Shown here in pieces: positions 16,180 to 42,427 of a DNA stretch of 42,652 nucleotides (position 1 is its first letter; every line of letters starts with the position of its first letter). Location: contig JBDHQG010000001.1 of the NCBI GenBank assembly GCA_039806925.1, positions 1 to 42,652 of the forward strand, in the 5' to 3' direction. The position numbers and the translations under genes were made by a program. The notes beneath the pieces are model-generated. The model ran no database searches. It was not told the origin of the DNA and saw only the letters and a program-made list of their open reading frames with translations. Source of the DNA: Limisphaerales bacterium (GTDB taxonomy: Bacteria; Verrucomicrobiota; Verrucomicrobiia; Limisphaerales; JADJPG01).

Positions 16180-16302
16180 TTGGAACCACGAAATACACGA
16201 AGGCCACGAAAGCCGGCCACCTTTGCCACTTTTAATTCATCAAACGTCCGTTGCGTCGGTTGTTCACATGTCGATTGGCTTTCGTGTATTTCGTGGTTCC
16301 AA
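16180..16302. repeat. Perfect 22-bp inverted repeat TTGGAACCACGAAATACACGAA (16180-16201 / 16281-16302) with a 79-bp spacer
   Basis: Read directly: the arms are exact reverse complements. It lies in the 195-bp gap between the kinase gene and the zinc-ribbon gene. Track ORFs crossing it (TKYTKATK / FVYFVV) are artefacts. Confidence 0.85.
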
Positions 16303-23282: not shown

Positions 23283-23357
23283 TTCGTAGCCGCCGAGGTG
23301 ACGAGGCGGAGCGGCCTGAGACTCCCAATGGTTCCGCCTCCTCACCTCGGCGGCTAT
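23283..23357. repeat. Family-1 hairpin repeat (TTCGTAGCCGCCG...CGGCGGCTA), copy 1
   Basis: ~24-bp stem tagccgccgaggtgacgaggcgga / tccgcctcctcacctcggcggcta with one mismatch and a 22-nt loop. It lies inside the 5' leader of the 23435 gene. Confidence 0.8.
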
Positions 23358-25171: not shown

Positions 25172-25220
25172 ATGCTGTCCGGGAATTCGAGCGGAAGCTT
25201 GTCCCGAAGGGACGGTTGAA
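25172..25220 (-). repeat. Family-2 structured repeat, internally deleted copy (minus orientation)
   Basis: atgctgtccgggaattcgagcggaagcttgtcccgaagggacggttga matches the two ends of copy 31505-31616. The segment between the two GTCCC..GGGAC hairpins is missing. Confidence 0.6.
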
Positions 25221-25243
25221 ACGGTGGTGGCGCGATTCTTCCG

Positions 25244-25360
25244 TCAGCCGTCCCTTCGGGACTCAGCCCGCCTACCGCTTTATTCCCGGCGTTGAAACGC
25301 CGGGCTATTTTCACCAGTCCCTTCCGGGACGCATCTCTCGGGCGAATTGCCGGAAGGCAT
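25244..25360 (+). repeat. Family-2 structured repeat (~115 nt, three hairpins), plus orientation
   Basis: The three hairpins are GTCCC-TTCG-GGAC, CCCGGCG-TTGAAA-CGCCGGG followed by CTATTTT, and GTCCC-TTCC-GGGAC. The element ends ...CGAATTGCC..GCAT. It aligns with 31630-31742 and with the reverse complement of 31505-31616. Confidence 0.8.
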
Positions 25361-25388
25361 CAGACTTTAGCCTGGATATTTCACAGGC

Positions 25389-25468
25389 TTCGTAGCCGCC
25401 GCGGTAACGAGACGGACTGCCGGCCGTGGAATCCCAAAGCCATCCGCCTCCTCGCGTCGGCGGCTACA
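25389..25468. repeat. Family-1 hairpin repeat, copy 2
   Basis: cttcgtagccgccg ... cggcggctac. The left flank atttcacaggcttcgtagccgcc is shared exactly with copy 3 at 31371. Confidence 0.75.
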
Positions 25469-31364: not shown

Positions 31365-31381
31365 CCTGCCATTTCACAGGC

Positions 31382-31455
31382 TTCGTAGCCGCCGACGCGC
31401 GGAGGCGGATGGACTGGGCGGTAATGAAATTCCGCCTCCTCACGTCGGCGGCTAC
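31382..31455. repeat. Family-1 hairpin repeat, copy 3
   Basis: ttcgtagccgccgacgcgcggaggcgga ... tccgcctcctcacgtcggcggctac. It is flanked by the inverted pair atttcacagg (31371) / ccgtgaaat (31480s). Confidence 0.78.
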
Positions 31456-31504
31456 AAAGGGTCGCGAATTCATGCGGGCCGTGAAATATCCCAGTATAGG
31501 ACTA

Positions 31505-31616
31505 ATGCCGTTCAGGAATTCGAGCGCGTTCGTCCCGGAGGGACAGCGTGAGAATAGCCCGGCGTTTCAACGCCGGGAACGAAGCCGAAGGCCGAAAGTC
31601 CCGAAGGGACGGCTGA
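31505..31616 (-). repeat. Family-2 structured repeat, minus orientation
   Basis: Its reverse complement aligns block-by-block with 25244-25360 (GTCCCTTCGGGAC, CCCGGCGTTGAAACGCCGGGCTATT, GTCCCTCCGGGAC, CGAATTCC, GCAT). Confidence 0.8.
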
Positions 31617-31629
31617 AGGGGTTGAAGGT

Positions 31630-31742
31630 TCAGTCGTCCCTTTGGGACTCGACCCTGCTGGTTCGTCCACCCAGCGTTGAAACGCTGGGCTATTTTTCGA
31701 TTGTCCCTCCGGGACACGCTCCGCCGAATTCCCGAAAAGCAT
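31630..31742 (+). repeat. Family-2 structured repeat, plus orientation; with 31505-31616 it forms a ~238-bp imperfect palindrome
   Basis: It has the same blocks, and the middle hairpin reads CCCAGCG-TTGAAA-CGCTGGG. That is a G-to-A change paired with a C-to-T change relative to the other copies (compensatory). Confidence 0.8.
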
Positions 31743-31781
31743 TGGAGCCAAGGCCCGCTCCACGCCCAGTTCAGACTCGTC

Positions 31782-35662: not shown

Positions 35663-35933
35663 AGAAGTCGCTGAACTCATAGAAGCGGCGAGGGTAGGCA
35701 GGTGCGGGCGCGACGTGAAGGAGATTTTCCCGGTAAACGGCTGCTGGGCGCATCTGGAGGGCGTGTCGGCCAAACACGCGGACCGCGACCGGTCCCCGGT
35801 CGCAGCGGGTGAAGCGCACCGGGCACCGTTGAAGTTTGCTGGCACCGCCGTCCGGGCGACGCGCTGCGAGCCGGGACGGCTCGCGGTCCGCATGTGGTGA
35901 CGGCATTTGGACAGGCTGGACGCGCTGTCCTTG

Positions 35934-42166: not shown

Positions 42167-42234
42167 GAGGTTGTCACTTCGTTCAATTCCGCAGACCGGG
42201 TGCTCGAAGAAGATTCGATCCGCAGTGTTGCGAT

Positions 42235-42382
42235 CTCATTAGCACCCGGCTTTAGCCGGGTGTTCAGATTCGGACGAACTCCAGCCGCTTCAACGGCTTC
42301 TTCAGCGCGGCTCGGAAAACCGTTGAAACGGTTTGGACCCCGACGCGGCAACGACACCCGGCTGAAGCCGGGTGCTAATGAG
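42235..42382. repeat. Family-4 structured element: 17-bp perfect terminal inverted repeat enclosing four hairpins, inside the ABC-transporter operon
   Basis: ctcattagcacccggct (42235-42251) is the exact reverse complement of agccgggtgctaatgag (42366-42382). Internal hairpins are cacccggc-ttta-gccgggtg, agccg-cttcaa-cggct, aaaccg-ttgaaa-cggttt and cacccggc-tgaa-gccgggtg. Confidence 0.85.
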
Positions 42383-42427
42383 AACGCCGTGGTCTTTGAA
42401 ATCATTGGAGTCAAAGTCGTCATCGCG

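Follow-up and report, generated by a model that had tools for sequence, protein, structure and literature searches.

The window analysed here, a 42,652-nt stretch from a Limisphaerales bacterium (contig JBDHQG010000001.1, assembly GCA_039806925.1), carries hairpin repeats of two families. At one site, a complete head-to-head dimer of family 2 was found at 31503-31742. Its left arm (31503-31617, minus strand) comprises a tail (31503-31521) and a module (31531-31617) with an Acido-Lenti-1 core at 31531-31577. It scored 80.2 bits with our R1 model and 36.9 bits with Rfam RF01687, just under the gathering score of 37. The right arm (31629-31742, plus strand) consists of a module (31629-31716) with its core at 31670-31716, and the tail GAATTCCCGAAAAGCATT (31725-31742). 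It scored 77.8 bits with R1 and 37.6 bits with RF01687, which exceeds the gathering score. Between the arms lies an 11-nt central spacer (31618-31628), in the place that the transposase gene occupies in gene-bearing units.

At the other site, the window scan revealed a plus-strand family-2 copy at 25243-25361. It includes a three-hairpin class-A module (25243-25331, plus strand; R1 75.3 bits), for which DNA folding gave three hairpins (z -3.4), namely P1 at 25250-25262, P2 at 25285-25304 and P3 at 25318-25331. The Acido-Lenti-1 core of this copy (25285-25331, plus strand) reached 31.9 bits with RF01687, under the gathering score. The outer tail of the class-A arm follows at 25332-25372 on the same strand, with GAATTGCCGGAAGGCATC and the small palindrome-like AGACTTTAGCC, and is kept among class-A copies. 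On the minus strand, 25173-25242 is a class-A left-arm remnant, as seen by alignment with an intact sister copy (C276:7300-7700). What is left of it is the outer tail, ATGCTGTCCGGGAATTC, and a single fused GTCCCGAAGGGAC hairpin; ~75 nt, the middle hairpin included, are missing between two identical GTCCCGAAGGGAC 13-mers. The first-pass annotation had placed a second, oppositely oriented family-2 copy at both sites. This is right for the dimer at 31503-31742, whereas 25172-25243 holds only the remnant. The dimer is intact, and 25173-25372 is a damaged form of the same ~200-250-bp head-to-head layout.

Three family-1 copies were located in the window. Two REP-like arms form a long GTAG...CTAT palindrome at 23286-23356 (DNA fold -30.2 kcal/mol, z -6.9); its flanks, TTCAACATTC and GTTCAGAACGG, are conserved. 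The copy at 25378-25467 (plus strand) has the left flank ATTTCACAGGCTTC and a GTAG...CTAC hairpin at 25392-25467. A subfamily element between ATTTCAC and GTGAAAT occupies 31371-31487 (plus strand), with a GTAG...CTAC hairpin at 31385-31455 (z -6.1), and its layout recurs at C518. The ~225-nt unit described earlier is indeed present at two sites: when 25244-25468 is aligned with the reverse-complemented 31382-31616, 170 of 248 columns are identical and the linker has an 18-nt gap. According to the flank ATTTCACAGGCTTC, the family-1 part is direct at both sites, and it looks inverted because family 1 is itself palindromic.

Both families are dispersed genome-wide, as the REP/MITE-like interpretation of the first-pass annotation had anticipated. 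A family-2 module is ~88 nt long and made of three short hairpins; together with a class-specific tail it forms an arm. The R1 model detected at least 146 modules on 69 contigs. Since the assembly is only 72% complete, in 734 contigs, copy numbers and the rule of one gene per class are provisional. An Rfam search showed that the two 3' hairpins and the GGCTA linker are RF01687 (Acido-Lenti-1), a family already on record but unexplained, an outcome that the first-pass annotation had listed among those that would refute it. Family 2 is therefore not new; this model matched 69 times in the genome, 40 of them at or above the gathering score. The repeats are spread over many unrelated intergenic regions, with no special tie to the sigma-54 cluster.

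Neighbouring modules followed the order "minus then plus" 57 times and "plus then minus" six times. In 51 of the 57 former pairs the gap was -1 to 53 nt, forming short head-to-head dimers. Five pairs had gaps of 454-525 nt, each with an intact Y1 transposase gene (C566, C445, C581, C690 and C213). Stem sequences divided the modules into classes E (51), A (34), C (30), B (10), D (6), F (5) and G (2). Both arms were of the same class in all 47 classifiable dimers. Classes A-F are each matched by the arms of at least one gene, and class G by a gene stub (C562). The C566 gene (2683-3129) encodes the class-A enzyme, and the C213 gene (3281-3748) that of class E. Every arm shares an invariant foot, CC-stem-GG-CTA; seen from the opposite strand it is (A/G)TAG-CC.

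The genome has eight small IS200-like Y1 transposase genes, and every one of them adjoins family-2 modules. Five lie exactly between one inverted module pair, each of these having a co-varying set of stems to itself, and those of C225 and C237 are also bracketed by modules. At C71, hairpins are visible on both sides, the R1 model having scored the downstream module only. The full unit is a minus-strand arm, a gene of ~150 codons and a plus-strand arm. A ninth locus, C562, has a 41-codon gene stub between its arms. Both of its flanks share synteny (74-77% identity) with L028, a Verrucomicrobiia locus whose gene between the arms is intact. Dimers probably arise from full units by gene loss.

The eight genes are paralogues with 34-50% identity, and each is single-copy. 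Their products matched PF01797 at 77-94 bits and NF033573 (NCBIfam IS200/IS605 transposase) at 56-77 bits, with a cut-off of 55. In the PDB, they matched the solved IS608, ISDra2 and archaeal TnpA structures, and no match to TnpA-REP was found at E <= 1e-3. The tyrosine motif, YIxNQxxHH, is the "Y...Q..HH" signature of TnpA-Y1 subclass 1.2.

The association between gene and arms extends beyond this genome. For 60 of 80 related Y1 genes, from at least eight phyla, a minus-strand module was found upstream and a plus-strand module downstream within 200 nt. Another 14 had a module on one side, and six had no detectable arms. Most of the related genes come from Verrucomicrobiota, Acidobacteriota and Planctomycetota. 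Over 18 stem positions, the arms of one gene differed by 1.8 and those of different genes by 5.6. Protein identity tracked stem similarity (Spearman -0.46; none of 500 permutations as low), a correlation that could come from shared descent of gene plus arms instead of a specificity code. Across 41 related genomes, gene and motif were both present in 27 and both absent in eight, with three having the gene only and three the motif only (Fisher p = 2e-4); each motif-only genome had one weak match.

Covariation was found in all three family-2 hairpins, with double changes in 15 of 18 base pairs, in agreement with the selection on structure proposed in the first-pass annotation. Of the stem cells, 97.1% were paired; shuffles reached 78% and slid controls 25-50%. 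In two counts (1206 and 2677 cells), 97-98% of the pairing was Watson-Crick, with almost no G·U: there were 11 and 13 G·T cells, as against 23 and 27 A·C cells. Covariation alone fits an RNA hairpin as well as a DNA hairpin. The almost purely Watson-Crick pairing fits DNA hairpins rather than a small RNA.

A congener, G003, has no element at either window site. One site has ~2 nt there (8 nt between BLAST matches) and ~407 nt in the window, the other 160 nt and 542 nt. The flanks are too diverged (~76%) to give base-exact insertion junctions, and the presence/absence between congeners could be deletion instead of insertion. The open reading frames across the repeats are artefacts, as presumed before, because the repeats are found in either orientation and the congener lacks them at the same sites. 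Target-site duplications, which the first-pass annotation had proposed as a feature to look for, were not found: the median longest flank match was 7 nt, equal to the control. Long flank duplications occurred at only four loci and were of another kind.

The inverted arms at Y1 genes, the DNA-like pairing, the empty sites and the lack of target-site duplications together make a REPIN-like non-autonomous derivative the best reading of family 2. The window clusters are best read as gene-less copies of the hairpin ends of small Y1 (single-strand-DNA) transposase genes. We are fairly confident that family 2 is the recognition end of small Y1 (HUH) transposase genes, with REPIN-like gene-less dimers, and that family 1, a GTAG-tagged REP doublet, is a family apart. 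We infer DNA-level recognition, cleavage and trans-mobilisation by the Y1 enzyme. The enzyme would recognise the arm hairpins as single-stranded DNA around the CC-stem-GG-CTA foot (TAG-CC on the other strand). The dimers would be non-autonomous elements, copied or maintained in trans by the cognate enzyme of the same class. We also lean, with more reserve, towards a broader proposal. Rather than a small RNA, Acido-Lenti-1 would be the module by which TnpA-Y1 subclass 1.2 recognises single-stranded DNA. Enzymes and hairpins would form at least seven or eight orthogonal pairs in this genome, with a separate population of gene-less dimers (5 to 51 modules) maintained by each enzyme.

The dimers could instead be retained mainly for the host, as bidirectional terminators or mRNA-stabilising 3' structures like classical REPs, their transposase origin being merely historical. 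Both window repeat sites begin within ~25 nt of a stop codon, and in class A the sequence CTATTTT(T)C comes after the middle hairpin, with terminator-like scores at 25285-25304 and 31670-31689. Arranged head to head, the two arms would point such signals outward on both strands. However, the T-run is limited to class A, the hairpin being followed by CTACC, CTATCACA and the like in the other classes, and the terminator counts did not exceed the shuffled expectation (1 vs 0.8; 2 vs 0.7). The congener lives without the element at both sites, and a host function leaves the class-matched intact transposase genes unexplained. We consider this explanation unlikely.

A trans-acting small RNA gene family is very unlikely. 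Under this explanation, the proximity of the transposase would be incidental or regulatory, for example through an antisense or leader RNA controlling the transposase. The authors of the original motif graded it as a likely RNA (PMC2864571), every helix covaries strongly, and one window copy passes the Rfam gathering score, as do 40 copies genome-wide. Yet the inverted pairs put half of the copies on the opposite strand at every site, motif copy number ranges from 0 to 69 among relatives, and G·U makes up ~0.5-0.9% of cells, being rarer than A·C. Neither window site has a sigma-70-like promoter. Moreover, the conserved unit exceeds the Rfam model and is positioned at both gene ends in at least eight phyla. 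The structured RNA family considered in the first-pass annotation has thus become the less likely option, the modules being inverted ends of Y1 genes with almost purely Watson-Crick pairing.

Family 1 has ~63 loci in the genome, with 88 arms and 32 doublets. Its arm, GTAG-CCGCC-GA(G/C)GTGA(C/G)GA-GGCGG, has an unpaired GTAG and a stem-loop, and commonly forms inverted dimers. Arm positions 3 and 8 are pairable in 81 of 88 arms (G..C 44, C..G 34, T..G 3). The paired changes noticed in the first pass are compensatory, although the pairing lies inside the small hairpin of each arm and not between the arms. Rfam microRNA matches on family 1 (mir-9456 etc.; 19-39 bits, cut-offs 61-150) were rejected as generic long-hairpin matches.

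That the two families form one composite mobile element, the ~225-nt unit, is extremely improbable. The unit is seen at C518 as well as at both window sites, the linkers being related, and 10 of the 63 family-1 loci have a module within 300 nt, with 0.9 expected genome-wide. But the other 53 loci have no module near them, and the enrichment largely vanishes when both families are restricted to intergenic DNA; we judge the closeness to be mostly an effect of both being intergenic. The orientation of family 1 relative to the family-2 tail also differs between the two window sites. Relatives carry either family alone: one genome (G014) has 136 family-1 arms without family-2 motif or Y1 gene, and another (G024) has 32 family-2 motif matches and eight genes without a family-1 arm. 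Because the families are distributed independently across genomes, a single mobile unit was rejected, and the composite unit of the first-pass annotation is two independent families side by side. A DDE-derived MITE was dismissed on two grounds: target-site duplications are lacking, and the enzyme of the gene-bearing form is of the Y1 type.

Read as transposase ends with REPIN-like dimers, family 2 resembles the REPIN/RAYT systems ("REPtrons"), which include E. coli TnpA-REP with REP/BIME and the Pseudomonas fluorescens REPINs (Nunvar 2010; Bertels & Rainey 2011, PMC3116915). In both, a Y1 HUH gene lies between inverted palindromic repeats, gene-less inverted doublets are intergenic and far commoner than the genes (here 51 short dimers and eight genes), and one genome has several cognate gene-repeat classes. 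The gene is single-copy and its locus vertically inheritable, as in the synteny of C562 and L028. In contrast to class-2 RAYTs, the enzyme here carries Y...Q..HH and matches the IS608/ISDra2 TnpA. The arm is a ~88-nt module of three hairpins and not a single hairpin of 20-40 nt. Its foot, (A/G)TAG-CC as read from the other strand, may or may not be equivalent to the 5' GTAG tag of a REP.

TIRtrons (TIRYT) consist of a tyrosine-transposase gene between long inverted repeats, and some of these repeats make up dimeric families of moderate abundance (Di Nocera et al. 2013, PMC3733652). By description they are alike to family 2 in having such a gene with long inverted repeats that are also dispersed. 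They include a sharply defined acidobacterial group, with Koribacter versatilis and others (PMC3733652); K. versatilis is also a seed genome of Rfam Acido-Lenti-1. The TIRtron paper (PMC3733652) says nothing of the three hairpins, of their covariation, of Acido-Lenti-1 or of how widely the phyla are spanned. TnpA-Y1 subclass 1.2 was described as generally without terminal IS200-type structures and mostly from Cyanobacteria and Bacteroidetes (Quentin et al. 2018, PMC6006769). The genes here share its Y---Q--HH motif, short core with a conserved C-terminal domain, and few copies per genome, but unlike the published subclass they have paired arms in 60 of 80 cases and come mostly from Verrucomicrobiota, Acidobacteriota and Planctomycetota. 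Rfam models RF01687 (Weinberg et al. 2010, PMC2864571) as a 46-nt small RNA from two phyla whose function is unknown, whereas the conserved unit here measures ~88 nt, has a third hairpin, occurs in inverted pairs and is transposase-linked. As in IS200/IS605, a Y1 HUH TnpA is encoded and insertion is without target-site duplication. However, the known IS200/IS605 enzymes use two same-strand hairpins and the arms here are inverted; nor are there multiple near-identical whole elements, the genes being single-copy.

If the proposed reading is true, the enzyme-hairpin pairs would amount to a natural code of specificity among HUH enzymes. A REPIN/RAYT-type partnership would also have arisen a second time, independently, on the IS200 side. 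REPIN/RAYT-like systems would then extend beyond class-2 RAYTs and Proteobacteria, and the published view of subclass 1.2 as lacking terminal structures would be corrected. With eight diverged enzymes and their class-matched hairpins, a single genome would offer a natural enzyme-substrate set for studies of HUH recognition of sequence and structure. For annotation, RF01687 matches should be taken as repeat or transposon ends, and open reading frames over them are spurious.

As a GTAG-tagged REP doublet, family 1 is unrelated to family 2 and lies beside it by happenstance. The GTAG-tagged REP superfamily was described by Di Nocera et al. 2013 (PMC3733652). Family 1 shares with it the short CCGCC...GGCGG stem-loop with an unpaired 5' GTAG, a majority of inverted doublets, and a ~100-fold variable copy number among relatives. 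It differs in having no linked Y1 gene in four repeat-rich genomes: none of 30 Y1_Tnp loci of G003, G014, G034 and G039 had a family-1 arm within ±1.5 kb (<=4 mismatches). None was found beside the Y1 genes of the window's own genome either. A further difference is that one arm pattern spans several families of the order. This degenerate 25-nt pattern (<=2 mismatches) had many exact matches in several genomes, among the matches listed, and the reversed-pattern control gave 0 matches across the 41 genomes. In G039, three widely spaced pairs of family-1 arms enclose ordinary genes, which by eye resemble a MoaA-type radical-SAM enzyme, an ATP-pyrophosphatase and an RDD-family protein.

Both repeat families reported by the first-pass annotation were present where it had placed them, which confirmed the repeats as an observation. 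Family 2, a three-hairpin module with a tail, has copies at 25243-25361 (+), 31503-31617 (-) and 31629-31742 (+). The latter two form the left and right parts of a head-to-head dimer (31503-31742), with a spacer of 11 nt and the layout typical of such pairs. Family 1, a palindromic REP doublet, has hairpins at 23286-23356, 25392-25467 and 31385-31455. The 225-nt unit recurs as claimed, with 170 of 248 alignment columns identical between 25244-25468 and the reverse complement of 31382-31616. Its opposite orientation at the two sites held for family 2 only. The flank ATTTCACAGGCTTC, common to both sites, places family 1 in direct orientation at each, and the whole unit seems inverted because family 1 is a palindrome. 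A second family-2 copy had been read from 25172 onward; 25173-25242 is instead an incomplete left arm, from which ~75 nt were deleted between identical copies of the 13-mer GTCCCGAAGGGAC, as exposed by comparison with an intact sister copy on another contig (C276:7300-7700, 91% identical). The connection of the repeats to the sigma-54 cluster is incidental.

Family 2 turned out to be an already described motif. The Rfam search matched Acido-Lenti-1 (RF01687) at 31670-31716 with 37.6 bits (gathering score 37), and the remaining two window cores scored 36.9 and 31.9 bits. Across the whole genome the model matched 69 times, and 40 of the matches exceeded the cut-off. Little has been published on Acido-Lenti-1, which was introduced as a 46-nt, two-hairpin candidate sRNA of Acidobacteria and Lentisphaerae, occasionally close to group II introns, with no function given (Weinberg et al. 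2010, PMC2864571). Among the publications examined from a full-text search on the motif name, none connects it with a transposase, and it is unmentioned in Di Nocera et al. 2013 (PMC3733652) and Quentin et al. 2018 (PMC6006769). The new explanation, that family 2 derives in REPIN-like fashion from Y1 transposase units, is well supported.

Alignment of the copies revealed a conserved unit larger than the Rfam model. It consists, in order, of TTCNNNCG, the 5' hairpin P1, a variable linker of ~20 nt, P2, an invariant GGCTA and P3; class-A modules additionally carry the tail GAATTCCCGAAAGGCATT. The covariation proposed for family 2 was borne out in 67 copies from this genome: 97.1% of the cells were paired, compared with 78% when shuffled and 25-50% with slid partners, and 15 of 18 stem pairs had double changes. 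As single-stranded DNA, the window modules fold into three hairpins (z -3.2 to -5.0). Both families proved to be multicopy genome-wide. Iterated nhmmer gave ~63 family-1 loci, and R1, a covariance model built on the 88-nt module, found at least 146 family-2 modules on 69 contigs, a lower bound from 150 scored candidates, in an assembly of 734 contigs (4.58 Mb, 62.7% G+C, 72% complete). Adjacent modules were mostly ordered '- then +' (n=57), with few '+ then -' (n=6), '++' (n=2) or '--' (n=1) neighbours. The spacer measured -1 to 53 nt in 51 of the 57 '-+' pairs, most commonly 21-24 nt. Sorted by P2 stem sequence, the modules fell into classes E (51), A (34, the class of the window), C (30), B (10), D (6), F (5) and G (2). 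The two arms matched in class in all 47 classifiable short dimers. Class A has CTATTTT(T)C after the middle hairpin, with a terminator-like score (25285-25311 and 31670-31696); this signal would point outward on both strands of a head-to-head dimer, and the T-run is missing in the other classes.

A Pfam Y1_Tnp search of the window's genome gave 12 matches, eight of which were intact genes of ~150 codons. Five of the eight lie exactly inside wide-spaced '-+' pairs (contigs C566, C445, C581, C690 and C213), and those on C225 and C237 have modules or dimers on either side. The C71 gene has hairpins on both sides in its flanking sequence, where R1 scored the downstream arm alone. Stem sequences of the arms differ gene by gene, each gene having its own set. 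The eight proteins share 34-50% mutual identity, match the NCBIfam IS200/IS605 transposase model, and all have HUH and a YIxNQxxHH tyrosine motif, a type that is the signature of TnpA-Y1 subclass 1.2 (Quentin et al. 2018, PMC6006769). Their structural matches were the solved IS608, ISDra2 and archaeal TnpA; E. coli TnpA-REP was not among their matches to solved structures.

Dimer formation from gene loss was seen at C562:6023-6348, a dimer with a transposase stub, whose 150-nt centre encodes ~32 codons from the start and ~13 from the end of such a gene. Its flanks are syntenic (74% over 921 nt, 77% over 355 nt) with a locus of a Verrucomicrobiia MAG (L028), where an intact gene lies between arms at the orthologous place. 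C562 is a direct snapshot of a dimer formed through internal gene loss, and the synteny shows that the locus was inherited vertically while the gene decayed in place. The synteny also suggests Verrucomicrobiota as the phylum of the window's organism.

Some Y1 genes have further repeats around them. At C690:1750-2560 and C566:2450-3300, the gene-bearing unit has on both sides long direct copies of the 5' end of the gene next to it, a ~75-nt repeat in C690 (containing a 36-nt exact match that begins CATGAACTCGCTCGTTGAATACC) and ~45 nt in C566, both dissimilar to a classical target-site duplication. At C237:6490-7730 one dimer precedes the gene and two follow it; beyond the next dimer, 52 nt of the transposase 3' end recur exactly, which marks a tandem duplication of arm and gene end. 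Three larger Y1-like ORFs carry RAYT-type motifs: C379:1663-2472 (269 aa, NHAH/YIRNNP), C201:2404-2664 (-) (189 aa, NHYH) and C90:10391-11602 (403 aa, NHFH/YVHLNP). Each of those on C379 and C201 lies between long direct repeats of its own, which belong to further families.

Linkage of gene and arms extended across genomes. In species-representative genomes, scanning detected at least 597 relatives of the Y1 gene. The best 80 of these came from Verrucomicrobiota, Acidobacteriota, Planctomycetota, Bacteroidota, Nitrospirae, Deltaproteobacteria, Zixibacteria, Calditrichaceae, Limnocylindrales, Fimbriimonadaceae and a MAG labelled Heliomicrobium. Searching 168 kb around them with R1 yielded 213 modules. 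Of the 80 genes, 60 had modules on both sides at no more than 200 nt, '-' upstream and '+' downstream; 14 had a module on a single side, and the R1 search of the flanks found none at six. Among the best 150 of the 213 modules, 98.2% of the cells were paired, with double changes in 17 of 18 pairs. Stems differed at 1.8 of 18 positions between the arms of one gene, compared with 5.6 between arms of different genes, and their similarity correlated with protein identity (Spearman -0.46; 0 of 500 permutations as low). Across 41 genomes (the window's and 40 relatives), gene and motif occurred together in 27 and were both missing from eight; three had the gene only, and three the motif only, as single weak matches (Fisher p = 2e-4).

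RNA under selection is expected to tolerate G·U much more than A·C. G·T accounted for 11 of 1206 and 13 of 2677 cells, and A·C cells were commoner (23 and 27). This A·C excess is a weak sign that selection acts on the strand complementary to that of the Rfam model. On this complementary strand, family 2 has an invariant foot, (A/G)TAG-CC, which resembles the GTAG tag of REPs. A sigma-70-like promoter was found at neither window site.

Presence or absence of the repeats was seen between congeners. At the second site, repeats span ~407 nt of the window (31365-31771), where the congener G003 has ~2 nt from the barrel-gene stop to the kinase leader (8 nt between BLAST matches). The first site measures 160 nt in G003 versus 542 nt in the window. 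The other two congeners, G001 (locus L101) and G002 (L100), have at the second site an unrelated 1.75-kb segment with opposite-strand genes. The spacer orthologous to 31365-31771 is a hotspot of structural change. With a stricter search, RF01687 had 5-11 matches per congener (n=3) versus 57 in the window's genome, which points to a recent family-2 expansion in this lineage. Direct repeats in the flanks of 56 units did not exceed the control (median 7 nt), so the target-site duplications that had been sought are absent from these flanks.

The chemistry is established for IS608/ISDra2 TnpA and for E. coli TnpA-REP; by analogy, the Y1 enzyme would recognise hairpins folded in single-stranded DNA, with replication forks as the probable place, and would cut beside the invariant foot. 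Gene-less dimers of the enzyme's own class may be copied or maintained in trans. REPIN/RAYT systems work alike, but the enzyme here belongs to class 1 and each arm comprises three hairpins, which sets the system apart from RAYTs. Like IS200/IS605 elements, family-2 units encode an IS200-type enzyme; however, their ends are inverted, whereas IS200-type ends are same-strand, and their genes are single diverged copies. Closest in the literature are TIRtrons/TIRYTs (Di Nocera et al. 2013, PMC3733652) and TnpA-Y1 subclass 1.2, reported generally without terminal structures (Quentin et al. 2018, PMC6006769).

Each family-1 element consists of two arms inverted about a ~20-nt centre, each arm reading GTAG-CCGCC-GA-S-GTGA-S-GA-GGCGG. 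The paired change in family 1 had been assigned to the two arms facing each other, but the compensation sits inside each arm. Among 88 arms, the S positions were G..C in 44, C..G in 34 and T..G in three, and hence pair within the arm, closing the GTGA loop. In 16 of 32 doublets a G..C arm is joined to a C..G arm, giving G·G and C·C mismatches in the long inter-arm hairpin; selection therefore acts on each arm's small hairpin, as in REPs. A degenerate 25-nt arm pattern (up to 2 mismatches) matched 87 times in the window's genome, 87 in G003, 286 in G008, 198 in G010, 136 in G014, 148 in G034 and 236 in G039. The last five represent several families of the order and have many exact copies. The distribution was patchy, with 0 matches in 20 of the 41 genomes, and the reversed pattern had 0 matches in all 41. 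In neither the window's genome nor four repeat-rich genomes was a Y1 gene found at up to 1.5 kb from any family-1 arm. The features of family 1 agree with the GTAG-tagged REP superfamily (Di Nocera et al. 2013, PMC3733652), and the family is a REP doublet of the ordinary GTAG type with no known partner.

The composite element of families 1 and 2 resolved into mere neighbours. The two families are independently distributed: G014 has family 1 without the family-2 motif or the Y1 gene, and G024 is the opposite. A family-2 module is present within 300 nt at 10 of 63 family-1 loci, versus 0.9 expected genome-wide, mostly because both families are intergenic. We read the 'composite' as adjacency of two families in permissive spacers, and one family may to some degree prefer insertion beside the other.

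An inverted repeat of 27 nt at 16180-16302 (96% complementary, 69 nt between arms) is unique in the genome and stands outside the repeat families. Two further palindromic families are present in the window. One, at 42230-42387, has ~60 loci, each arm containing a CACCCGGC-TTTA-GCCGGGTG hairpin. The other, at 35774-35895, has ~111 loci, and its sequence also occurs beside some family-2 dimers (C453, C168). With families 1 and 2, the genome thus has at least four abundant palindromic families.
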